32,000 nucleotides of DNA. It comes from Desulfocapsa sulfexigens DSM 10523. GTDB lineage: Bacteria; Desulfobacterota; Desulfobulbia; Desulfobulbales; Desulfocapsaceae. The stretch is from NCBI RefSeq assembly GCF_000341395.1, contig NC_020304.1, positions 2,460,001 through 2,492,000 on the forward strand, written 5' to 3'. The notes beneath the pieces are model-generated. The model searched no databases. It worked only from the letters and a program-made list of their open reading frames with translations, and was not told where the DNA came from. The position numbers and the translations under genes are program-made. Positions 8,071 to 20,318 of the stretch are shown one piece after another (position 1 is the stretch's first letter; each line of letters starts with the position of its first letter).

Positions 8071-10002
8071 ATGCGTGAAATAGTCCTAGGTACAGCAGGT
8101 CATGTTGATCATGGCAAAACCAGTTTTGTTCGTGCGCTTACCGGTATTGAGACCGATCGTCTCAAGGAGGAAAAAAAGCGTGGGATTACTATTGAACTGG
8201 GGTTTGCCTACCTTGACCTTCCCTGTGGCCATCGCCTGGGAATTGTGGATGTACCTGGCCATGAAAAATTCGTAAAAAACATGGTGTCCGGAGTCTCTGG
8301 CATGGATCTTGTTGCTTTTATCATTGCAGCAGATGAAGGGATTATGCCGCAGACAGAGGAACATTTTGAAATCTGTCGTCTGTTAGGAGTGAAACAGGGG
8401 ATCATCGTCATTACCAAAAAAGACATGGTGGATGAAGAGTGGCTGGAGATGGTCACCGAGGAGGTACGGGAATACTGTAAAGACAGTTTTCTTGAGGATG
8501 CGCCTCTCGTCCACGTCTCTTCCACCACCGGCGAGGGGATAGACGAGATACGTGGGCTTCTCAATACATTCGTTGCAGGACAGCAATTTAAAGAGGTGCA
8601 TGGACCTTTTCGTCTTCCCGTTGATCGTATATTTGCCATGAAAGGTTTCGGGGCTGTGATTACCGGAACCTCCATGTCTGGACGCGTTGCCATTGGAGAG
8701 GAACTCTGTTTTTATCCCACTGATATGGTTTCTAAAGTACGTGGTATCCAGGTACATTCCGCGGAGGTTGAAACCGTGGAAGCCGGGCATCGTACTGCCA
8801 TAAATCTCCAGGGTGTGGATACTGCTGCAGTGGCTCGCGGAATGGTTGCCGCTACCCCCGGCAGTCTCTTGCCAGGCTATATGCTGGACTGTGAATTCCT
8901 TTATCTTGCGTCAAATACAAAACCTTTAAAACACCGGACTCGGGTTCGGATCCATCTGGGAACAGCTGAGGTCATGGGCAGAATTTCACTCCTTGACCGT
9001 GATTTATTGCAGCCTGGAGATACGGCCAGTATACAGATCCTACTCGAAGAGGCTGTTGCGGTGTGGCCCGGGGATCGCTATGTGGTTCGCTCCTATTCGC
9101 CCGTCGGCACCATAGGTGGCGGCGAGGTTCTTGGCAATATGCCTCCGCGGAAACGCAAGCGTGTCACCGAGCGTGATCGAGAGGCGAACATCCGGAGTTT
9201 TACTGTATTGCGTGGTGAGGACGTAGAAGAGAAAATTCTGCTGTTTCTACGAGAAAGTGGAACCTCGGGACTCACGTTTGATGAACTCGCAGTCCGTCTT
9301 GGGATCTTTGGAAAACAGCTGAAAAAAATAATTACCACTCCCTTATCATCGAGAAAAATTGTGGTGGTGGATTCCTCCAGCCAGCGCTATCTTGCCAAAA
9401 GTGTCAGTGACGGTGTGGAAGAAGTTGTGTTAACAAACCTTGGACGCTATCATAGTTCAAATCCACTGCAGATAGGTCTGTCAAAGGAGGAACTGCGTTC
9501 AGGGCTTGGATCCAATGTTGATCAGAAGGTCTTTCACTTCTGTCTCCTGGAGCTGCAGAAGAAGGAACTGGTTGCTCTGGAAGATTCAGTGGTACGACTT
9601 GCCTCGCATCAGGTTGCTCTACAGGCTGATGAGAAGAAATTACAGGAGGATCTTGAGCACTGGTATCGGGAAAAAGGCTTAATCGCTCCAACCATGCGGG
9701 AGAGCATGGAACAGTTCAATGATTATCCGGAATCGCTGGTGAAAGAGGTCTTTGGGATTTTGCTGAGAGAAGGTAAACTGGTGAAAGTCAGCGAAAGCCT
9801 TTATTATGACGCTGCTGCCATTGATGCATTACGCGAGAAAATGACAGCTTTTATCGAAAATGAAGGGGAGATCGATGCCCCGCGCTTTAAAAATCTCACG
9901 GGGCTGACACGGAAGTTCTCCATTCCTCTTCTTGAATACTTTGATCGTATGAAGCTTACTATTCGAGTGGGCGATAAGCGCGTTCTGAGAAAAACACGAT
10001 AA
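8071..10002 (+). CDS. selB: Selenocysteine-specific translation elongation factor SelB
   Basis: 643 aa. EF-Tu-like GTPase N-terminus ([24 protein letters not shown]) followed by the roughly 270-aa C-terminal winged-helix extension characteristic of bacterial SelB. Confidence 0.9.
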
Positions 10003-10035: not shown

Positions 10036-11211
10036 TCAGCTTTTTATCTTCATCTTCTTCAGTACTATCTCACCAAATATAAATGCCGCCAGAAAAAAGA
10101 ATATTGCTCCAGTGGTGATCATGATTTCATGGAGACTGGGGCTGTATGGGTAGTATTGGGGGAGATCAACCACATTATACTGATAGTAATGGGGGATCAG
10201 TTGGCCAACTATTACCAGATCATAAAAGAGAACAAATGAACCAACAAGACAGGATATGCTGGCAATGGCCATCGTGGTTCTGTTTTGTACTCCGGCAACA
10301 CCAATAAGAATCAATGGCAGTACAACAGCCAGTCCCACCTCGCCTATCCAGAAATTCAAAAAGAAATTGCCCTGAACCAAGTTATACATAGCCTCAGGAT
10401 TTTTTGTGAATTCAGGAAAAAAACCACCCATAACCTTAATGCCGGTGAAATAGGCAATTGCCAGGAGAAGGACCATAAACAGTCTTCCCGTACTTTGAAT
10501 GGCGAGTTCTTCGGCCCGGTTCATGGGCTTTCCTTTCAGAAGTTTGGCGGCCCAGGTGAACAGGATCACCGCTGCGCAACCACAAAGCGTTGAGAGGGAG
10601 AGGAAATAGAGAGGCATGTAGTTCTCATTCCAGAAGCCTCTTTCGCCAAGAAGAGCCATGTCGGATTTCATGTTTAGATTTCCCATGGTCACCGTGATAA
10701 AGGCGATTATGGCAAAAAATCTCGCCATTTTTTCATTTTTTACCAGTAGGGCGAGAAAGTTAAAGAGCATAAAGATCAGGAAGAGGCTGTATATGGTGGT
10801 CTTCCACCATATATTCGAGGCAGGATGTGGGGATGAGAGTGCATTCAGACCTACCCGCCAGGGGTTCTCCAGTTCCAGAGTGATACACATAAGACCTGTG
10901 GCCATGGTGGCGAGAGACAGGAAGACGGTTCGTGGAATAATAGGTTGAAAAATTTCTATTCTAAAGACCTGTCCCAGAGAGGAAATGATACATAGTCCAG
11001 TGGAGAGGCAGGCAAAGAATACGTAAGGAGTGATAAGAATGCCCCATGGCACTTCTCTTGTCGTTCCAAAGGTATGGTGATGTCCAACCAGCAACGAGTG
11101 GAGGCCAAAAGAAAGGCCTATTATACTGAGTAGCGTGAGTCCTGTAAAAAGGAGTTCAGAAGTGCCGAGTAGTGAAGGTTTTGAATCAAAATTTTGCTCG
11201 ATTGTCATCAT
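10036..11211 (-). CDS. NrfD/PsrC-family integral membrane quinone-interacting subunit
   Basis: 391-aa polytopic membrane protein lying directly downstream of a Tat-exported NrfC-like FeS protein. AGGAAA SD upstream of the ATGATG at 11211. Confidence 0.8.
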   Translation of the reverse strand: MMTIEQNFDSKPSLLGTSELLFTGLTLLSIIGLSFGLHSLLVGHHHTFGTTREVPWGILITPYVFFACLSTGLCIISSLGQVFRIEIFQPIIPRTVFLSLATMATGLMCITLELENPWRVGLNALSSPHPASNIWWKTTIYSLFLIFMLFNFLALLVKNEKMARFFAIIAFITVTMGNLNMKSDMALLGERGFWNENYMPLYFLSLSTLCGCAAVILFTWAAKLLKGKPMNRAEELAIQSTGRLFMVLLLAIAYFTGIKVMGGFFPEFTKNPEAMYNLVQGNFFLNFWIGEVGLAVVLPLILIGVAGVQNRTTMAIASISCLVGSFVLFYDLVIVGQLIPHYYQYNVVDLPQYYPYSPSLHEIMITTGAIFFFLAAFIFGEIVLKKMKIKS

Positions 11212-11261: not shown

Positions 11262-12023
11262 TCAGCTCTCCACGTAAAAGACATTTGGCAGGGTGTCCAA
11301 TTCAGGACGCAGTACCCAGAACACTTTCCCAGATGTATGGATCAGTTTGTAGGCATGGCTTGTCGGATCGGTGAGATCTCCGAAAACTCTGACATTTGCG
11401 GGACAGGCCGAGGCGCATGCTGTTGTTTTACCGTTGCTCTCCTTGAGTTTGCTGTTGTAGCAGAAGTTACACTTATCAACCGCTCTGATGGCTTCATCAA
11501 AATACCTGGCATTGTAGGGACATGCCGTCATACAGGTCTTGCAGCCAATACACTTGTCGGTATTCATCTGGACAATGCCGTTTACCGTATCTTTGTAGGT
11601 GGCTCTGGTTGGACAGACTCGTACACAGGGGGCATTGTTGCAGTGATTGCAAAGGATTGGCATAAAGACGCGCTCCCTATGATCGGGTGCTACCGGGACA
11701 CTGCGTTCAAGTACTGTTGTGCGGAAGCCATCATCAGGGACTTTGTTGGTGCTGCGACACGCTTCCATGCATTTTTCGCAGCCGATACAATGCTTTTCTC
11801 TGATAACCATTGTGTAGTGCGGGCTGTAGGGAGACTTGGTTGTCAGTATTTTCCCGCCGCTAAGGGCTCCCGTTGCATTATGGGCCGAAGTCAAAGAGAG
11901 AATTGTTCCTCCTAAAAATACACCCGTGATGGAGAGTCCAAGTTGCAGAAAACAGCGCCTCTCTTTTGAGGGAAGATTCTCTGTGCCTTCATTTTTTAAA
12001 TTTTTTAGATTCGTAATCTTCAT
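11262..12023 (-). CDS. Tat-exported 4Fe-4S ferredoxin-type subunit (NrfC/HybA/DsrO-like)
   Basis: Twin-arginine signal (SKERRCFLQLGLSITGVFLGG). Four Cys clusters: CIGCEKCMEAC, CNHCNNAPCVRVCP, CIGCKTCMTACP, CNFC...CASACP. Confidence 0.9.
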   Translation of the reverse strand: MKITNLKNLKNEGTENLPSKERRCFLQLGLSITGVFLGGTILSLTSAHNATGALSGGKILTTKSPYSPHYTMVIREKHCIGCEKCMEACRSTNKVPDDGFRTTVLERSVPVAPDHRERVFMPILCNHCNNAPCVRVCPTRATYKDTVNGIVQMNTDKCIGCKTCMTACPYNARYFDEAIRAVDKCNFCYNSKLKESNGKTTACASACPANVRVFGDLTDPTSHAYKLIHTSGKVFWVLRPELDTLPNVFYVES

Positions 12024-12060: not shown

Positions 12061-13497
12061 TTAAGGCTCATCGTGGCACATGTTACAGTCCTGTCCGATG
12101 ATTTTGCCAAACTTCGTTTCATGTTCATCATCATGGCAGCGGAAGCAACCATAGCCGTCATCTGCATATTGATGTCCAAGATGTTGCCGGTATGTTCCCC
12201 AGGTGACTTTCATTTTTGGCCACACATTGTTCAGATATGCTTCAAGCAGAAAGGAACCTGATACAACTATCTCCTTTTCATGTTCTGCTACGAATTCGTT
12301 TCCATGACGTTTTGCAACATGTTCGAGCAGGTCTTCAACGATTTTTTCCGCTGCTTCATCCCTGCTGGAATATTCTGTTTTGAGAACACTCATACTGTCC
12401 TCACGAATTCCTGCTATTTCAGGGTTTATTTTCCTGGAGTGGAGACCAAAGTCTATTACTTCTTCGAGGCCATCATAGACGTGGGTGGGACGATTATGAC
12501 AGTCGATACAATCCATGGTTCGCCATTTAAGTGCCACTCCCTCTTCGGGCACTTCATCAGCGATTGAATATTCCTCTGTCACTCCACCGGGTCTGGTAAC
12601 CTTTATTTTTCCAATTTTGGTACGTTTCTCGTCAAGAGCCTGATATTCAACCTTTATGTCGTGACTGACATGCCAGTGAATACCTTCAAATTCGGAAGTT
12701 ATAGGGTTGCGCCCACCGATATGCAGGGATATTTCCTGGGTATCTGCATCGGTCTGATTGTCATTAGTGAAACTGATAAATTCTTTAACTCTCTTACCGT
12801 GGAACTTTTCTGGCCAGTGGCATGATTCACAGGTGTCCCGTGCAGGTCGCAGATGCTCAACGGGAGCAGGAATTGGTCTATTGAAATCCCCATCGATAAC
12901 TGCCTTTACCTGACGCAGTCCTGAAAGCTTGGCTTGGACATACCAGTTTGCTCCGGGGCCGATATGACAGGAAACGCAGGATACTTTTGCATGTGGTGAC
13001 CTCTGATAGGCCGTGTATTCTGGATCCATAACCTGATGGCAGACAACGCCACAGAAGTAGGATGAATCGGTAAAGTGGTATCCCTCATAGGCAACCAGAA
13101 TCAGAACAGTGATGTTGACTACTGAGAGAACAATAAAAAGTAAAATACCCTTTCTGTGCTCCTTATCAGCAAGGTCTATTTTCAGATGTTCCGTGTTAAT
13201 GAGGCTGTCTTTAAACCATTTTTTGCGTCGAAAATAGCAGGAGAGCGGGATAAGGCAGAGGCCAAACAGCATCATTGCCGGTAAAAAAAGAAAGGTAAAA
13301 ATAGCAAAATAGTGATTGGCTATTAATCCAGTGAGATGGCCGATGAGACCTAATATGATCAGGGTGATGGATACGGTTGTCAGTCCCACTCCCAAAAATC
13401 CGAGTGGGGTTTTCCAGGTACAGCCGAGTAAACGTTCCCAGGCACCCAGTTCCTGATCTCCTTTCCCGTCTCCGTTGTTCTGTTGCTGATCGCTCAT
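12061..13497 (-). CDS. Membrane-anchored multiheme cytochrome c (three N-terminal TM helices, NapC/NirT-like first heme pair, six heme-binding motifs)
   Basis: Motifs in order: CGVVCH (CX3CH), CVSCH, CESCH, CIDCH, CFRCH, CNMCH. Three hydrophobic helices within the first 150 aa or so. The start ATG overlaps the upstream stop as ATGA. Confidence 0.85.
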   Translation of the reverse strand: MSDQQQNNGDGKGDQELGAWERLLGCTWKTPLGFLGVGLTTVSITLIILGLIGHLTGLIANHYFAIFTFLFLPAMMLFGLCLIPLSCYFRRKKWFKDSLINTEHLKIDLADKEHRKGILLFIVLSVVNITVLILVAYEGYHFTDSSYFCGVVCHQVMDPEYTAYQRSPHAKVSCVSCHIGPGANWYVQAKLSGLRQVKAVIDGDFNRPIPAPVEHLRPARDTCESCHWPEKFHGKRVKEFISFTNDNQTDADTQEISLHIGGRNPITSEFEGIHWHVSHDIKVEYQALDEKRTKIGKIKVTRPGGVTEEYSIADEVPEEGVALKWRTMDCIDCHNRPTHVYDGLEEVIDFGLHSRKINPEIAGIREDSMSVLKTEYSSRDEAAEKIVEDLLEHVAKRHGNEFVAEHEKEIVVSGSFLLEAYLNNVWPKMKVTWGTYRQHLGHQYADDGYGCFRCHDDEHETKFGKIIGQDCNMCHDEP

Positions 13498-14423
13498 ATC
13501 TCTCCTCCATTTAAGCTTTTCTGTAAAATAGCCGCGCTTTTTTCACCATTTTCTATGATTTTATAGAGTATCTTTTTTTGTTCTCCTCCAACTTGTTCAG
13601 CCTCGCAGTAATCTGCCAGCAGTTGTGAATAATTTATGATACCGTTCAGTCTATTTGTGACTTCATTTACAATGGCAGAAAACTCGGTTTCTCTTCTGCT
13701 GGGGACAACAGGGGCTTGCTCGGTACCTTCTGCTGTCAGGAGCAGTTGATTGAAAGAGTGGATTATATTCTGAACTTCGACACTGTTTTTGTGCTCATTC
13801 TTGAGGTGAATCCGGGTTTTGTCCGTCAGGGCCTGGTGGCTTTGTTTCGAAAGAAAAATAAGAGGTTGAACTGACTTTTTGTAAAGAATAATCAGGGTGA
13901 AAGTCGTCAGGAAGATGATTAATCCCATAAGGACCAGAGCTTTTTTTTGATAATACATGATCCTGTTTTTCATTTCTCCGACGACAATCCGATCAAACTG
14001 AAGAAATTGACTGTTAATCTGACGAAGGAGGCCGAGAGTCTTCAGGGCAAGTGTCCTGTCTGCGGTGGTTTCAGCGCTTTTCTTGAGGTGGATGGAGATT
14101 TCTTCAAGATCAATTTTCTTTAAAAAAGAGAGTTTATATTGTGCCGGGATAAGACGGTTATCCAGTAAGGCAATATATCGTGTGTTGAGTTGCTCAACTT
14201 CCCGGGCGGCAGCAAGGAGCTGGGTGGAATTTTCGGAGAGAAGACCTTCGGTGGCCTGTTCGCGAATAGTTGAGTAGAGGAAAATGGTTTTCTCACTGTC
14301 CTCTACGATGGAATTGTAGGTACCCATAAGACGGTTCTGGGAATAGCCAGTAATTATGAGCATGGCAAGGAGCAGTGCTGTCCCAAGAAAGGCGGCTGTG
14401 CTTAAGCTACGCAGCGATCGCAT
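13494..14423 (-). CDS. Two-TM membrane protein with a periplasmic helical sensor-like domain and a C-terminal histidine-kinase DHp-like segment. It lacks the phospho-acceptor His and has no ATPase domain.
   Basis: TM1 AAFLGTALLLAMLIITG; TM2 ALVLMGLIIFLTTFTLIILY. The C-terminal EFSAIVNEVTNRLNGIINYSQLLADY resembles the H-box (compare GVAHEINNPITGIINFAQILLD in the kinase at 19197-20318), but has N where the His should be. The ORF stops about 45 aa later. Confidence 0.6.
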   Translation of the reverse strand: MRSLRSLSTAAFLGTALLLAMLIITGYSQNRLMGTYNSIVEDSEKTIFLYSTIREQATEGLLSENSTQLLAAAREVEQLNTRYIALLDNRLIPAQYKLSFLKKIDLEEISIHLKKSAETTADRTLALKTLGLLRQINSQFLQFDRIVVGEMKNRIMYYQKKALVLMGLIIFLTTFTLIILYKKSVQPLIFLSKQSHQALTDKTRIHLKNEHKNSVEVQNIIHSFNQLLLTAEGTEQAPVVPSRRETEFSAIVNEVTNRLNGIINYSQLLADYCEAEQVGGEQKKILYKIIENGEKSAAILQKSLNGGEI

Positions 14424-16290
14424 TTGTTTCCCGGAGATTTTGGGGCTGACTGCAGTTTTCCTTAACTGTGCAGGTGCTACAGCTTTGTTCTGGATTTGCT
14501 ACGGCTGCAGCCTCCTTTTTCAAGCTGCATTCGACTATGATCTCAAATTCCTCTCCGTCCAGCGTCTCTACCTGAAGGAGAATCTCAGCAAGATTTTTTA
14601 GAAGACACTGTTCCTGTTTCAATATTCGGACGGCCTCTTCATAGCAGCCTGTCAGGAGTTCGTTGACTTCTTTGTCAATTCGTTTTGTTGTTTCCACACC
14701 CATTATAAGACGACTTCCTGCGCCGCCAAGGAACCCACCGCTTTCCACGGCATAGGCCTGTGGTCCCAGGGTATTGCTCATGCCCCATTTGCATATCATA
14801 TCGGTGGCAATTTGAGTGGCTGTCAGAAGATCTCCCTGAGCGCCTGTGGTCTGCTCTTTGAATATAAGTTCTTCGGCTGCACGTCCGCCCATAAGTACTA
14901 TGATCTTAGTACGAAGGTACTCCTTTGAATAGGCAGGGTGGTCACTGATTGGCAGTTGTTGTGTCTGGCCCAGGGCCATGCCTCGTGGGACGATGGTGAT
15001 TTTGTGGAGTGGGTCGGATTTTGGAAGCTTGCTTGCAAGAATTCCATGCCCTGCTTCATGAAAGGCCAATATCTTCCGGTCTTCTTCACTCATCACCAGT
15101 CCCTTACGTTCAATTCCCATAAGGATACGATCACGAGCCCTTTCAAAGTCTTCATTAATTATCTGATCATTGCCTTTTCTGGCGGCCATAAGTGCAGCTT
15201 CATTTACCAGGTTAGCGAGTTCAGCACCGGTGAAGCCGGAGGTTGCCTTGGCGGTATCTTCTAGATTGACTTCCGGGTGCAGGGCAACCTTGTTTCCATA
15301 CACCTCGAGAATCTTCAGTCTTCCCTTCACATCTGGAGCCAGAATATTGATTTGACGATCAAAACGACCGGGACGTTTCAGTGCAGAATCCAGGATGTCG
15401 GGTCTGTTTGTGGCAGCAAGTACGACAATGGTATCTTCTGTGTTGAATCCATCCATCTCAACGAGCAGGGCATTCAGTGTCTGGCCCCGTTCTTCCTGGC
15501 CTCCTGCCGAGGCACCACCTGTTCTACTCGCTCCAACAGCGTCAATCTCATCGATGAAAACAATACACGGAGTGTTCTTCTTTGCTTCTTTGAAGAGATC
15601 CCTCACTCGTGAGGCGCCGACGCCGACAAACATCTCAACAAAATCGGAACCGCTGAAACTGTAGAACGGCACCTTTGCCTCACCTGCAACTGCTTTTGCA
15701 AGCATGGTCTTACCCGTGCCTGGGGGCCCCTGAAGCAGGATTCCCTTGGGAATGGTTGCACCAATCTTTTTGAAATTTTCCGGATATTTGAGAAAGGAAA
15801 CGATCTCTTCGAGTTCTTCTTTTGCCTCTGGAATCCCGGCTATGTCCTTGAAGGTTAGATTTAGATCCTTGCCGTTGAGGCTGATCAGCTTTTCACTGGC
15901 AAATTTGCTTTCTTCTTCTTTTTTAGTACGGTTTGATGACCACCATGTCGCCATGATCAGGAGAACCACAAAAACAGAAAGAATTGTTACGTAAATAATG
16001 GTAAACCTGTCTGCTTTTACAATAACGCGAATGTTTTTACCTTGGATTCTTTCCAGAAATTTACTGACATCCGGCACCGTTGTCACAAAAGTGTGATCCT
16101 CTCGATTGGTGAATGCAACTTTATTACCGGTAAACTCGAGTTTTACGATCTGATCGTTATTTAAATGCTCTATGACTTCGCTGTAATCCTGGCTGGGATG
16201 TCTGTGTTCAATAAACCAGAGTAGTGCCATAAACATGGCCAGGCCGGCAAAGAGAAAGCAGATAAGCATGTTGCGGACAAGAAGAGCCAT
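14407..16290 (-). CDS. ftsH: ATP-dependent zinc metalloprotease FtsH
   Basis: Two TM helices, Walker A GPPGTGKT, Walker B IVFIDEIDA, SRH TNRPDILDSALKRPGRFDR, zinc site HEAGH. The ATG at 16290 has an AAGGA SD, whereas the track start at 16335 is a GTG with no SD. The last 17 nt overlap the next gene. Confidence 0.95.
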   Translation of the reverse strand: MALLVRNMLICFLFAGLAMFMALLWFIEHRHPSQDYSEVIEHLNNDQIVKLEFTGNKVAFTNREDHTFVTTVPDVSKFLERIQGKNIRVIVKADRFTIIYVTILSVFVVLLIMATWWSSNRTKKEEESKFASEKLISLNGKDLNLTFKDIAGIPEAKEELEEIVSFLKYPENFKKIGATIPKGILLQGPPGTGKTMLAKAVAGEAKVPFYSFSGSDFVEMFVGVGASRVRDLFKEAKKNTPCIVFIDEIDAVGASRTGGASAGGQEERGQTLNALLVEMDGFNTEDTIVVLAATNRPDILDSALKRPGRFDRQINILAPDVKGRLKILEVYGNKVALHPEVNLEDTAKATSGFTGAELANLVNEAALMAARKGNDQIINEDFERARDRILMGIERKGLVMSEEDRKILAFHEAGHGILASKLPKSDPLHKITIVPRGMALGQTQQLPISDHPAYSKEYLRTKIIVLMGGRAAEELIFKEQTTGAQGDLLTATQIATDMICKWGMSNTLGPQAYAVESGGFLGGAGSRLIMGVETTKRIDKEVNELLTGCYEEAVRILKQEQCLLKNLAEILLQVETLDGEEFEIIVECSLKKEAAAVANPEQSCSTCTVKENCSQPQNLRETNAIAA

Positions 16291-16496
16291 ATAGCAGAGT
16301 CCTTTAGGTTGCCATAAAAGAATATGGAAAAGCACCAGCTGATAGAGTTTTAACTGCGTGGGCTTTTCCTGAGGGGAGCAGGTGAACCTCGAAATAGTGT
16401 CGGTAATGAAAGGTAGCTATGTTGCCTTACCGTTGACCATCCATGTTAGCCTTTTTATCACAGGTGGTTAAAATGAGGACTTCACTGTAGACACAT

Positions 16497-16521
16497 CCGC
16501 AGGGGTGAAAACCCCCTGCGG
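16497..16521. terminator. GC-rich 9-bp hairpin between the small-protein pair and the ftsH promoter region
   Basis: ccgcagggg (16497-16505) pairs with cccctgcgg (16513-21) across a 7-nt loop. The T-rich run (catatctttt) follows on the plus strand only, so terminator function for the minus-strand small ORFs is uncertain. Confidence 0.35.
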
Positions 16522-16574: not shown

Positions 16575-16799
16575 TTACATACCACTTACAGCTTTGAGCC
16601 AGCCTCCAGCGAGCTGCAGGGGGCCACCTGCCTGAAACATTGCACTGGCAAGACAGGCGATGCTCCAGAGTCCAACAACCCCTGCAAATGCTGCTATACT
16701 TCCGATAATAACCTTGTCTATTTCGGTGGAAACTGAACTCGTCGTACTGTCTTGAACCGTTGATTTACTTTTTTGTTTAGTAAGTACTGTGTCATCCAT
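16575..16799 (-). CDS. Small (74 aa) single-TM protein, paralog 2 of a tandem pair; family not recognised
   Basis: ATG with a GAGAGGAAAG SD. Hydrophilic S/T/K-rich N-terminus, one TM helix (VIIGSIAAFAGVVGLWSIACLASAMF), then the conserved QAGGPLQL..G...KA..GM tail. Aligns without gaps to the upstream ORF. Confidence 0.65.
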   Translation of the reverse strand: MDDTVLTKQKSKSTVQDSTTSSVSTEIDKVIIGSIAAFAGVVGLWSIACLASAMFQAGGPLQLAGGWLKAVSGM

Positions 16800-16836
16800 T
16801 TTTCTTTCCTCTCATTGATGTGTTTGAAAAGTATCG

Positions 16837-17061
16837 TTACATTCCTGCCAGTGCTTTAAAGTAGCTTCCAACAAGTTGCAGGGGGCCACCGGCCTGGAAC
16901 ATGGCACTCATAAGACATGCGACACTCCATAATGCAACAACGCCTGTAAAGGCTGCAACGCTGCCAAGGATCACTTTGTCAATTTCAGCGGAGGCGCTTG
17001 TTGTTGTTTGTTCATGAGTCCTGGCCTGGCCTTTTTGTTTTGTCAGTGTCGCTTCACTCAT
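16837..17061 (-). CDS. Small (74 aa) single-TM protein, paralog 1 of a tandem pair; family not recognised
   Basis: ATG with an AAAGGAG SD 6 nt upstream. Same architecture as 16575-16799. Lies about 50 nt downstream of a sigma-54 promoter. Confidence 0.65.
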   Translation of the reverse strand: MSEATLTKQKGQARTHEQTTTSASAEIDKVILGSVAAFTGVVALWSVACLMSAMFQAGGPLQLVGSYFKALAGM

Positions 17062-17111
17062 GGGGTCTCCTTTGATGGTGTGAGGGGGATGTTCTGTTCT
17101 GCCTCTCTAGT

Positions 17112-17127
17112 TGCATGCTCCGTGCCA
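17112..17127 (-). promoter_or_regulatory. Sigma-54 (RpoN) -24/-12 promoter for the small-protein pair
   Basis: The minus strand reads TGGCACGGAGCATGCA against the consensus TGGCACG-N4-TTGCW. The GG-to-GC spacing is correct and there is a single mismatch (A for the first T of TTGC). The -12 element lies about 50 nt upstream of the ATG at 17061, and a sigma-54 activator gene is immediately upstream. Confidence 0.65.
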
Positions 17128-17248: not shown

Positions 17249-17319
17249 TGTCCCAAATGTGTACCAGGGGTGTCCCGCCGATGTCCCACAACTGTCCCGG
17301 AAATGTCCCGTTGTGTCCC
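17249..17319. repeat. Array of seven direct hexamer repeats (six TGTCCC, one TGTACC; GGGACA on the gene strand) phased at 11 bp
   Basis: Hexamer starts at 17249, 17260 (TGTACC variant), 17271, 17282, 17293, 17304 and 17314. Spacings are 11, 11, 11, 11, 11 and 10 bp. The spacers between hexamers are not conserved. Confidence 0.85.
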
Positions 17320-17407: not shown

Positions 17408-19192
17408 CTATTCTTCTATATTATAACGCTGCATTTGTCTGTAGAGGGTGGAGCGGGCTACTCCAAGAAGTTTTGCTGCCTTTACTTTGTTTCCATTTAC
17501 CTGCTTGAGAGCATTGATGATTTTTTCATCTTCCCGTTGATAATGGGGGCTGATGGAGAAGAGTTCAACGGGATGGTCATGGTGATGAGGGAATGGAGGG
17601 GAACTTTGCAATACTGTTTCTTTTTTGGGGGGATTCTGGAGTTCGTCGGGGAGATGTTGTACCAGGAGCATGGGCCCATCACAAAGTACACATGCCCTTT
17701 CCATGACATGTCTTAGTTCCCGGACATTTCCAGGCCATTGGTAACTGGCCATGCATTCAAGCGCCTGGTCGGAAATAGTCGCAATTTTTTTGTTAAGCTG
17801 TTTTCTGAAAATTGTCAGGAAATGGGTAGCAAGCAGTGGGATACCATTGATTCTTTCGCGCAGGGGAGGCAGTCTTACTTCGATAACCTTGAGGCGGTAA
17901 TATAAGTCTTCCCTGAATTTTCCTTCGGAGACCATTTTTTGAAAGTCAACATTAGTGGCAGCGATAATCCTCACATCCACCTTTAAAGGCGTATCCTGGC
18001 CCACCGGGGTGAACGTTTTTTCCTGGAGAAAACGGAGAAGGAGTAACTGGTTCCGCGGCGAGATATCTCCAATTTCATCAAGGAAGAGCGTTCCTCCATC
18101 AGCTTGAAGCAGCATGCCCTCTCTGTCTCGGTCGGCTCCGGTAAAAGCACCCTTACGATGGCCGAAAAGCTCGCTTTCAAGTAAATTTTCGTTTACGGAG
18201 ACGCAGTCTACCTTGATAAGAGGTTTGTCACGTCGTGAACTTTCGGCATGAAGGGCCTCGGCAGCTAGTTCTTTTCCGGTTCCGGATTCACCTGTAATGA
18301 GGACGGCGGTATCGACCTTACCGATGTTTTCGATCATTTTGTAAACTTCCTGCATGGCCCTACTGGAGCCAACACAGCCATGAAATCGGTTCCGGATTTC
18401 ATTGATTTCTCTTGGTTCTTCGAGACTCATATCCCTTGCTACAATAACAACGCCCTGAAATTCATCATCTTCGCCACGCAACGGTGAGGCATTTAAGCTG
18501 ATGATCTTTGTGGAGTCATCGGCAGTATGGCACTCAATAAGATGTTTTCTCACTTCAGTGCCGTCCTGAAGAACTTTGCGGGCATCATTGAGACAGGCCA
18601 TACCGACTTCTTCTGGGAACTGATCGAGATCATAAAGTCCCTCCGCCCCTTTATCCTTGAGCCATTGTTCTGCTGTTTCATTGAGTTGTACAATCTGCAT
18701 ATTGGCGTCTATCGTTATAATTGCATCGCTGACCGAGCGAAAAATTGTCTCAAGGTAACGACGGAATTTTTCATTTTCCCGAAGCAGTCCTTCAGCTTTA
18801 TTTTCAAGAGACCAGTGCAGAAGTGCCTGGCGGGTAAAACGCAGCAGGGTATTCTTGTTTACAGGTTTGGAAATGTAATCAAAGGCGCCGTGTCTGACGG
18901 ATTCAGTAGCTGTTTCAAGGTTAGGGAATCCTGTTATCATCACCACAGGACATTTTATGTTCAGTTCCCTGGTTTTCTTTAGAAGGTCTGTTCCGCAGGG
19001 ACCTATCAGCACAATGTCACTGATAATAAGGTCATATGTGGTGTTTTTAATTGCTTCAATGGCTTGATCAAAAGTTGCTACGGTGTTGACAAATTGATAC
19101 CCTTCAGAGGTAAGAAAAATTTCGAATGTCTGGCGGATAGACTCTTCATCGTCGACAATAAGGATGTGGGCAGAATATAAGTCGTGCTCCAT
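17408..19192 (-). CDS. Sigma-54-dependent response regulator (REC-PAS-AAA+-Fis-type HTH; NtrC family bEBP)
   Basis: REC domain (ILIVDDEES...LIISDIVL...KPV), a central PAS-like region, AAA+ with Walker A GESGTGKE and the sigma-54 contact loop GAFTGA, and a C-terminal HTH (AAKLLGVARSTLYRQMQRY). I prefer the ATG at 19192, 4 nt after the kinase stop, to the track's TTG at 19219. Confidence 0.92.
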   Translation of the reverse strand: MEHDLYSAHILIVDDEESIRQTFEIFLTSEGYQFVNTVATFDQAIEAIKNTTYDLIISDIVLIGPCGTDLLKKTRELNIKCPVVMITGFPNLETATESVRHGAFDYISKPVNKNTLLRFTRQALLHWSLENKAEGLLRENEKFRRYLETIFRSVSDAIITIDANMQIVQLNETAEQWLKDKGAEGLYDLDQFPEEVGMACLNDARKVLQDGTEVRKHLIECHTADDSTKIISLNASPLRGEDDEFQGVVIVARDMSLEEPREINEIRNRFHGCVGSSRAMQEVYKMIENIGKVDTAVLITGESGTGKELAAEALHAESSRRDKPLIKVDCVSVNENLLESELFGHRKGAFTGADRDREGMLLQADGGTLFLDEIGDISPRNQLLLLRFLQEKTFTPVGQDTPLKVDVRIIAATNVDFQKMVSEGKFREDLYYRLKVIEVRLPPLRERINGIPLLATHFLTIFRKQLNKKIATISDQALECMASYQWPGNVRELRHVMERACVLCDGPMLLVQHLPDELQNPPKKETVLQSSPPFPHHHDHPVELFSISPHYQREDEKIINALKQVNGNKVKAAKLLGVARSTLYRQMQRYNIEE

Positions 19193-19196
19193 AAAT

Positions 19197-20318
19197 TCAG
19201 ATCCCTGCTGGAAGTTCAATGATCATTTCTGTGAATTGGTCGAGTATGGAGTTCACCCGCAGGTCACCTCCATGGTCTTTTATGATTCCATAGCTGATGC
19301 TGAGTCCGAGTCCTGTGCCCTCACCAGGAGGTTTCGTGGTGAAGAACGGTTCGAAGAGGCGCTCCAGAAGGGATTGAGGCAGACCGGTTCCATAATCTTT
19401 AATGGTTATGAAGTACACACAGGATTGTCCCTTCTTTTTTTTCTCACAAGTGATTTCAATCTTCTTTTGTGGATTGGGGGAAGGGTATCGGGCGTTTAAG
19501 GCGTAGCGGCTGTTGCTGATAAGGTTAAGAATAACCTGCTGCAGTTGTCTGAAATCGGCAATGATGAAAAAGTCTTTTTTTGGAAAGTCTGTTACTATCC
19601 TGATACCATCCTTGCTCAGTTGATGCCGCACCAGCGTAAGACTTTCTCTGATTACTTCCACAGGATTGACGGGTCCCTGGTCACGACCGTCTGCCCGTGA
19701 AAAAGAGAGCAGGTTGTGGGTGATTGAGGCTATCCGATCACCTTCATGGATAATTTTATGTATGATACTTTCTCCGGTGGCATCAAGCTTGTAGTTATCC
19801 AGCAGTATTTGAGCAAAATTGATGATGCCCGTGATGGGGTTGTTGATCTCATGGGCAACGCCCGCAGCAAGTTCACCAATGGCTGCCAGTTTGGCAGTAC
19901 GTATGGAGTCAACTCGGCGGCTTTCATCCCCGGAGAGTTCCCTGGCGATGAGCATGATTTTATCTATTGTTCCATCGGGCTCTTTAACCGGGGAAATGGT
20001 AAAGGAATATTCACCGAAGAGTCCGGGAAGTCGAGTCTCTTCAACTTTTGGAGAACAGGTCTTGAGAAATTCTTCCAGGGGGCATTTGATATGCGGCCAT
20101 CTGCCACCATGAACAATCTTACAGATCCCCTTGCCAACCACCTCTTTTCTCTCTTTCTTTGCAGCGAGCAGCGTTGCATTGTTTGCCTCAATAATGGTGC
20201 CATCGGGGCTTACAACAATTACAGGATCCTGGATAGCGTTGAAAAGTTGCTCCCAGGTGCCGCCGTGGTGGGTTTCCGATGTGGGGGAATGGTTGGGAGC
20301 AGTCTGCGGGGTGAGCAA
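19197..20318 (-). CDS. Soluble PAS-domain sensor histidine kinase (PAS-HisKA-HATPase_c), TTG start
   Basis: H-box GVAHEINNPITGII, N-box ILNLISNSRYAL, G1 IKDYGTGL, G2 GEGTGLGLSISYGI. No TM segments. The only available in-frame start downstream of the upstream TAA is the TTG at 20318, with GGAG 9 nt upstream. Confidence 0.9.
   Translation of the reverse strand: MLTPQTAPNHSPTSETHHGGTWEQLFNAIQDPVIVVSPDGTIIEANNATLLAAKKERKEVVGKGICKIVHGGRWPHIKCPLEEFLKTCSPKVEETRLPGLFGEYSFTISPVKEPDGTIDKIMLIARELSGDESRRVDSIRTAKLAAIGELAAGVAHEINNPITGIINFAQILLDNYKLDATGESIIHKIIHEGDRIASITHNLLSFSRADGRDQGPVNPVEVIRESLTLVRHQLSKDGIRIVTDFPKKDFFIIADFRQLQQVILNLISNSRYALNARYPSPNPQKKIEITCEKKKKGQSCVYFITIKDYGTGLPQSLLERLFEPFFTTKPPGEGTGLGLSISYGIIKDHGGDLRVNSILDQFTEMIIELPAGI

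Follow-up and report, generated by a model that had tools for sequence, protein, structure and literature searches.

An undescribed family of small membrane proteins and its genomic link to an FtsH paralog in Desulfocapsa sulfexigens

Small membrane proteins regularly go unnoticed, and partners are known for only a few of them. Two neighbouring genes in the window (the whole analysed stretch of 32,000 nucleotides from Desulfocapsa sulfexigens DSM 10523, C1:2460001-2492000, numbered from its first letter) raise the question of what a tandem pair of closely similar 74-residue proteins does, and on which partner it acts. We refer to these genes as A and B:

16837-17061, minus strand: gene A, a 74-aa ORF of class A with the C-terminus YFKALAGM
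16575-16799, minus strand: gene B, its 74-aa paralog of class B with the C-terminus WLKAVSGM

Gene A is the first gene behind a sigma-54 promoter, gene B lies 37 nt downstream of it, and each is preceded by a Shine-Dalgarno sequence (for A, GGAG at 17067-17070). The original prediction had aligned the two products by hand and found them equal in length, free of gaps and identical at about 47 of 74 positions; BLASTP returned exactly this result (47/74 identities, 58/74 positives, gaps 0, E 3e-36), and the proposed motif, EIDKVI.GS.AAF.GVV.LWS.ACL.SAMFQAGGPLQL.G...KA..GM, is letter-perfect in both proteins. The claim that divergence centres on the N-terminal 25 or so residues was likewise borne out, with identity at 10/25 positions (40%) in residues 1-25 and at 37/49 (76%) in residues 26-74. 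AlphaFold2 predicts, with modest confidence (mean pLDDT 67), a helix from residue 2 to 56, a break at G58-G59-P60 and a second helix from 60 to 71. Across the 109 homologs of 74 aa the N-terminal head is fixed in length and variable in sequence, with T, S and Q making up 50% of it, and the anatomy first proposed for the pair (variable head, conserved TM helix, GGP hinge, short tail) holds in more than 100 homologs.

A word-indexed search of 5.8 billion proteins yielded 146 homologs of A and B, and all of the named ones are labelled 'hypothetical protein'. Length is exactly 74 aa in 109 of the best 120 of these 146, and an alignment of 40 homologs contains 16 invariant columns (M1, E26, D28, K29, A37, F38, W45, A48, A53, Q56, G58, G59, P60, L63, A70 and G73). 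Mean column entropy in the 109 homologs of 74 aa is 1.60 bits over residues 2-25 and 0.58 over residues 26-74. Synonymous differences among orthologs are saturated (pS 0.65-0.94), while non-synonymous differences (pN) amount to 0.05-0.17 over residues 26-74 and to 0.2-0.4 over residues 1-25. Because synonymous sites are saturated while residues 26-74 hardly change and length is conserved, A and B are real genes under strong purifying selection, and their conservation is far above the chance level; the TM/GGPLQL block, whose absence from related genomes had been named as an observation that would count against the pair, is conserved there under this selection. Together with the variable head, conservation of the TM helix, the GGP hinge and the tail fits contacts with other proteins within the membrane or at its surface. 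The helical variability moment (0.059 versus 0.093 in shuffles) revealed no conserved face confined to one side of the TM helix, so the whole TM helix appears to be constrained; the earlier phrase 'interaction surface' understates how far its conservation extends.

The family occurs in 164 of 301 genomes sampled from the order and in 10 of 401 sampled from the phylum, and its 167 clusters among 1.84 billion representatives consist almost entirely of free-standing proteins 62-80 aa long. Longer matches were considered as fusions and rejected: P0131 and P0214 carry merely N-terminal extensions of the called ORF, similarity to the family stops partway along P0123, P0126 and P0129, and P0186 is repetitive sequence. 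P0247 is the exception among the longer matches examined. Pfam, NCBIfam and PHROGs gave no match for A or B, a profile search of all PDB sequences with the A/B family returned noise only, and full-text literature searches, which took in Desulfobulbales proteome papers, revealed no paper on the family. The A/B family is undescribed and unannotated, and its members are single-pass membrane proteins.

Iterated profile searches place exactly 14 family members in this 4.02-Mb genome, namely the A/B pair and 12 further genes:

C1:3358044-3359063: four-gene tandem array of family members
eight genes at seven loci: 'type C' genes encoding 64-68 aa

At six of the seven type C loci a protein of 99-100 aa is encoded immediately downstream, and the genome thus holds six two-helix relatives (99-100 aa) beside the 14 members. 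Compared directly by HMM, the 99-aa proteins of the genome showed no significant match to the family (E 7.5). The link runs solely through the bridging 96-aa protein P0247, which matches the A/B profile (E 1.5e-4 in a search of 1.84 billion proteins; hhalign probability 96%, columns 27-72) and aligns with the 99-aa protein along the full length (E 5e-14), and because this bridge matches both, we regard the 99-aa proteins as two-helix relatives of the A/B family. Their extra helix scores 21.8 bits against the HmcD profile, and that of the 96-aa relative 12.3 bits, with a cut-off of 34. Both ends of the two-helix relatives are K/R-rich, so the segment homologous to GGPLQL...G is predicted to form an outside loop in them; together with the mean K+R content of the homologs (4.3 in residues 1-29 versus 1.0 in the C-tail), this suggests that the topology of A and B is probably N-in/C-out.

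Is the pair itself a property of the family? Among 120 homologs, 67 belong to class A and 52 to class B, and the only class-defining columns are 67 (Y/W), 71 (L/V) and 72 (A/S), all within the C-terminal helix, where they look like a partner-specific face. Wherever both classes co-occur, the gene order is always A then B. The suggested check whether orthologs always occur as pairs gave a negative answer: 9 of 20 orthologous loci have two genes and 11 have one, almost always of class B; one of the pairs is an independent B+B duplication, and two loci pair B with a more divergent copy. Judged from these loci, duplication is recurrent and the A/B pair is lineage-specific. The hetero-oligomeric pair envisaged earlier is therefore plausible at this locus, but with 11 of 20 loci single-gene and one B+B it does not define the family.

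The sequences flanking the pair suggest how its expression may be controlled:

17112-17127, minus strand: sigma-54 promoter TGGCACGGAGCATGCA, with its GG 65 nt before the ATG of A
17249-17319, minus strand: six GGGACA boxes, repeated every 10-11 bp or so, 193-258 nt ahead of the start codon of A
16497-16521, minus strand: GC-rich 9-bp hairpin, about 50-80 nt after the stop of B, with an extended stem of -25.9 kcal/mol

Every family locus in this genome has the pattern TGGCA[CT]-N6-TGC[AT] 62-80 nt upstream of its first gene. Strict matches to this pattern number 73 genome-wide in 3.99 Mb, and 10 of the 73 lie 62-80 nt upstream of family or module loci, where chance would give about 0.0014 per locus. 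Against these 73 strict promoter sites the genome encodes 28 sigma-54 activators. In other genomes the strict pattern is present at 16 of 39 loci; it is absent from loci L056, L070, L071 and L074, where ftsH is divergent, and from most orphan loci (those lacking FtsH within 6 kb), where gene starts are placed only approximately. The GGGACA boxes are presumed to be an enhancer for the adjacent activator. A paralogous module carries five phased GCAACAC direct repeats (C1:3357764-3357850) upstream of its own sigma-54 promoter, in the same layout as the GGGACA boxes and with a different box sequence, and the orphan type C loci have in common a conserved upstream block with GCAACAC or xxACAC boxes. 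At the other end of the pair, the hairpin in the window has no U-run on the transcribed strand; across related loci the spacer between the last small gene and ftsH is 130-480 nt, and a strong hairpin followed by a U-run lies in it at 15 or more of 20 loci. Since a hairpin or terminator follows the small genes, they are probably the main, and probably an abundant, product of the sigma-54 promoter, and transcription of ftsH from this promoter would need read-through.

What the original prediction lacked was the family context, that is, the sigma-54 promoter, the FtsH paralog, the pseudo-kinase, the cytochrome module and the 12 further paralogs. On the minus strand the order is PAS kinase, activator, promoter, A, B, FtsH paralog, 309-aa pseudo-kinase, cytochrome, NrfC-like and NrfD-like genes:

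19197-20318, minus strand: soluble PAS histidine kinase, partner of the activator (Pfam, synteny)
17408-19219, minus strand: sigma-54 activator REC-PAS-AAA+-HTH_8, directly upstream (Pfam, conserved upstream neighbour)
14407-16335, minus strand: FtsH paralog (Walker motifs, HEAGH, C-terminal CxxC-x5-C tail)
13494-14423, minus strand: 309-aa membrane pseudo-kinase (TM, periplasmic domain, TM, DHp-like helix), overlapping the end of ftsH
12061-13497, minus strand: NrfH/NapC-type multihaem cytochrome (Pfam, synteny)
11262-12023, minus strand: NrfC-like FeS protein, in the same direction as the module
10036-11211, minus strand: NrfD-like membrane subunit, in the same direction as the module

Just past the NrfD-like gene, a gene for the selenocysteine elongation factor SelB lies on the plus strand (8071-10002). 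The longest ftsH ORF starts with GTG at 16335; all homologs align from residue 16, and for this reason the true start is probably the ATG at 16290. Of five FtsH homologs in the genome, only the two that adjoin small genes end in CxxC-x5-C, which could be a redox or metal site; the two tails read CSTCTVKENC and CETCPAADRC (window 14407-14520 and C1:3361000-3361125). The 309-aa membrane protein matched nothing in the family libraries, and over residues 249-299 it aligns with the DHp helix of the soluble kinase, with Asn in place of the phospho-accepting His, which suggests that the soluble kinase and the membrane pseudo-kinase form a split sensor. The whole cassette is duplicated in the genome, the second copy having its own four small genes, and in a third kinase-activator-FtsH module an IS1595-family transposase gene (C1:3371307-3372212) replaces the small genes behind the sigma-54 promoter. 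Metagenome contigs preserve the identical gene order, with one, two or three small genes.

We then asked which of these neighbours accompanies the small genes most faithfully. Of 59 loci sampled, 45 have an FtsH paralog adjoining the small genes: it lies beside the small gene or genes in each of the 19 close loci of other genomes, and it is present in 26 of another 40 loci drawn from the order and phylum, in 20 of these directly downstream on the same strand. The remaining 14 of the 40 comprise one locus with only the pseudo-kinase and cytochrome, two with the activator only and 11 orphans; seven family loci in D. sulfexigens are also orphans without a nearby FtsH. In the distant-family genome G106 (L072) the unit is reduced to small-small-FtsH among unrelated genes, and no activator, pseudo-kinase or cytochrome was found within 6 kb; in genome G139 the unit is NrfD-small-small-FtsH. 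At L056, L070, L071 and L074 the small genes are co-transcribed with two cytochrome genes, and ftsH is divergent. Within the taxonomic family of the window, 50 of the 51 genomes that encode the small proteins also carry the FtsH paralog, against 0 of the 21 that do not encode them, and inside one genus the counts are 8/8 versus 0/8; these figures rest on a threshold set after the data had been seen, and the related genomes are not independent. They derive from the best match per genome to the FtsH of the window, tabulated by hand for the 301 genomes of the order, in which E-values are bimodal (1e-179 or lower marks the paralog, 1e-171 or weaker the housekeeping FtsH only). Co-inheritance is with the whole cassette and not with FtsH alone. 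Taken together, the FtsH paralog is the partner most constantly linked to the A/B family.

Inheritance together with a private FtsH copy makes it probable that A and B are partners or substrates of FtsH. Our preferred reading, to which we assign a probability of roughly 0.45, is that they are made in quantity on induction and serve the private FtsH paralog as clients, decoys or modulators. The reality of the genes, the existence of the family, the sigma-54 promoter and the synteny and co-inheritance with the FtsH paralog are shown here, whereas the topology, the high expression and any binding to FtsH or degradation by it are inferred. To begin degrading a membrane protein, FtsH needs a cytoplasmic tail of some 20 residues or longer, and the small proteins SpoVM, lambda CIII, MgtR and MgtU are FtsH substrates, inhibitors or adaptors, with YccA as a further precedent. 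We propose that a signal would cause the adjacent PAS kinase and REC-PAS-AAA+ activator to fire the sigma-54 promoter, and that the bulk of transcription from it would end in A and B at the hairpin or terminator behind them. The two proteins would insert with their T/S/Q/K-rich, disordered tail of about 29 residues in the cytoplasm, and their TM helix and GGP-hinged C-terminal helix would dock on partners in the membrane or at its periplasmic face. The likeliest docking partner is the FtsH paralog encoded next door, for which A and B may serve as dedicated clients, decoy substrates or modulators: a tail of about 29 residues would be long enough for the FtsH ring to grip, and the conserved TM helix and C-tail would give specificity. 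A and B might in this way set the timing of FtsH action on the co-encoded sensor or cytochrome module; alternatively, FtsH might simply remove them at the end of the signal. Several observations count against the FtsH-client reading. The orphans (11 of the 40 sampled loci and the seven loci here) have no FtsH, the small genes go with cytochrome genes at the four loci with divergent ftsH (L056, L070, L071 and L074), and the third module has an FtsH paralog without small genes; moreover, the whole module is co-inherited, and the terminator means that A and B need not share a transcript with ftsH.

The same gene string can be read from its cytochrome end, and A and B would then be accessory single-helix 'crutches' of the quinone-linked NrfH/NapC-cytochrome/NrfC/NrfD module, anchoring or multimerising the cytochrome in the way that TorE/NapE work with TorC/NapC, or HmcD in the Hmc complex, with FtsH as its quality control. 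We consider this main rival unlikely on balance, though a real possibility. Genes for NrfH-like or other multihaem cytochromes, for NrfD or for both occur in at least 19 of 29 non-orphan loci, one layout has two cytochrome genes directly after the small genes, and the string in the window continues into the cytochrome, NrfC and NrfD genes; there is a precedent in TorE/NapE, which bind NapC/NirT-type cytochrome anchors (PMC6134056), and the two-helix relatives fuse the family core to a weakly HmcD-like helix (21.8 bits, cut-off 34). That similarity, however, is sub-threshold and lies outside the part common to A and B, which neither the NapE/TorE nor the HmcD profile matches. FtsH also occurs without a cytochrome at L041-L043 and L072, but a cytochrome without FtsH only once (L057), and the terminator that separates the small genes from the other module genes speaks against a 1:1 stoichiometry. 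Decidedly improbable, in our view, is a feedback role like that of MgrB, in which the C-terminal and TM helices would bind the membrane pseudo-kinase and damp or latch the signal until FtsH resets it. The promoter, which the neighbouring two-component pair would control, has A and B as its first and probably its main product, the pseudo-kinase with its periplasmic domain and His-less DHp is a conserved member of the module, and A and B are predicted to turn their best-conserved part towards the periplasm, all as such a loop would have it; yet the orphan loci and the small-small-FtsH unit have no pseudo-kinase or kinase nearby, twenty family members in a single genome are many for pure feedback regulators, and Pfam and NCBIfam revealed no similarity of A and B to MgrB or to other known kinase-binding small proteins.

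Less likely still, and very doubtful, is that the proteins are themselves the effector, abundant helices that self-assemble under stress into a hetero-oligomeric bundle, a pore or a membrane-stabilising array in the manner of Psp and are afterwards cleared by FtsH. A Gly/Ala/Ser-rich TM helix conserved on all faces, a multi-copy family with repeated tandem duplication, and a strong inducible promoter before the genes with a terminator after them would suit an effector; but Pfam, NCBIfam, PHROGs and PDB searches found no signature of a channel or Psp family, and a generic membrane effector would not need such tight linkage to a protease, a sensor and a cytochrome. Barely credible is the view that the ORFs are untranslated, or that their product is a cleaved exported peptide with an N-terminal leader. 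Saturated synonymous sites with very little amino-acid change and an exactly conserved length speak against the former. For the latter there is only the GG pair and, in B alone, an A-S-A triplet, and we rejected a double-glycine or Sec-cleaved peptide because the TM that would form the leader is conserved beyond what any signal peptide shows, neither a C39 peptidase nor an ABC exporter was found nearby, and the relatives keep the segment as an internal loop. Two further identities were also tried and rejected: the phage-shock proteins PspB/C/D/G, for which Pfam and NCBIfam gave no match and whose receiver-less activator type (PspF) is unlike the activator here, with its REC and PAS domains; and a holin or other phage protein, for which PHROGs gave no match.

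The present analysis contributes the residues that separate classes A and B, evidence that single genes are common in place of the pair, the counts of FtsH co-inheritance, the small-small-FtsH unit, the terminator pattern, and the P0247 bridge, which connects the two-helix proteins to the family and supplies the predicted topology. The A/B family offers unusually clean genomic handles (a sigma-54 switch, an FtsH paralog, a pseudo-kinase and a quinone-linked cytochrome module), and in this sulfur-disproportionating bacterium it has expanded to about 20 genes and about one-eighth of the strict sigma-54 promoter matches. If the link to FtsH is true, this would be the first protease paralog inherited with dedicated small-protein clients or modulators in a respiratory gene cluster, and an entry point to the way in which Desulfobulbales regulate membrane redox complexes. 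Going further, we speculate that A and B, the private FtsH and the His-less pseudo-kinase could constitute a new proteolysis-timed signalling loop, in which the sigma-54 switch would fill the membrane with tailed single-helix decoys that would occupy FtsH and thereby transiently protect, and so activate, the quinone/cytochrome module or the sensor, residues 67, 71 and 72 would choose the partner of each paralog, and the other 12 members and six two-helix relatives would wire further respiratory complexes into the loop; as a whole this scheme is rather improbable.

Several known systems resemble parts of this arrangement. The sigma-54 promoter beside a two-component regulator recalls PilS-PilR-pilA, where a two-component pair with a sigma-54 activator likewise accompanies a small, highly expressed gene with its own terminator and tandem paralogs; the likeness is one of layout only, since A and B lack both a class III signal peptide (G/FxxxE) and an N-methylation motif, and their activator has an extra PAS domain. 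A type IV pilin (PilA) was accordingly rejected as an identity, there being no Pfam N_methyl match and no class III signal, with Gly at -1, Phe/Met at +1 and Glu at +5, in the sequence before the helix, SASAEIDKVILG. MgrB of the MgrB-PhoQ type is, as A and B probably are, a small N-in/C-out membrane protein under two-component induction (for A and B as the promoter suggests) that could feed back on its sensor, but A and B have no homology to it, their sensor would be split into a soluble kinase and a membrane pseudo-kinase, and their family also occurs away from kinases. HmcD (NCBIfam NF045712), from the Hmc complex of Desulfovibrio, is a tiny hydrophobic subunit tied to NrfC/NrfD-type modules of sulfur-metabolising Desulfobacterota; an HmcD-like helix occurs only in the 96-99-aa relatives, below the 34-bit cut-off, and A and B have neither this helix nor an NCBIfam match.

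TorE and NapE (PF06796) are closer in form, being single-helix proteins of 56-74 aa with a conserved helix, encoded beside NapC/NirT-type multihaem cytochromes, and the window similarly encodes small single-TM proteins together with a cytochrome of this type (12061-13497). TorE/NapE bind the membrane anchor of such cytochromes and support its oligomerisation, form 4:4 complexes and can heterodimerise as paralogs (PMC6134056). No match to NapE (PF06796) emerged, even at E up to 10, when A, B and five of their paralogs were scanned against Pfam. Unlike A and B, TorE/NapE are co-transcribed with the cytochrome and have no protease and no sigma-54 switch, whereas A and B carry an extended hydrophilic stretch at the N-terminus and, behind the GGP hinge, a C-terminal helix.

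As FtsH-directed small proteins, A and B show the genetic coupling described above (adjacency in 19/19 and 26/40 loci; co-inheritance in 50/51 versus 0/21 genomes), and we propose that they would act like SpoVM of Bacillus, lambda CIII, MgtR/MgtU of Salmonella and YccA, which are small, hydrophobic or amphipathic, inducible, and act on FtsH or are degraded by it; MgtR and SpoVM are also named in PMC6134056. These precedents are unrelated to A and B in sequence, act on the housekeeping FtsH and are not known to be encoded beside it. In contrast, the A/B system is inherited with its own FtsH paralog and stands under a sigma-54 two-component switch of its own, together with a pseudo-kinase and a cytochrome module, a combination that sets it apart from every one of these FtsH-directed precedents.
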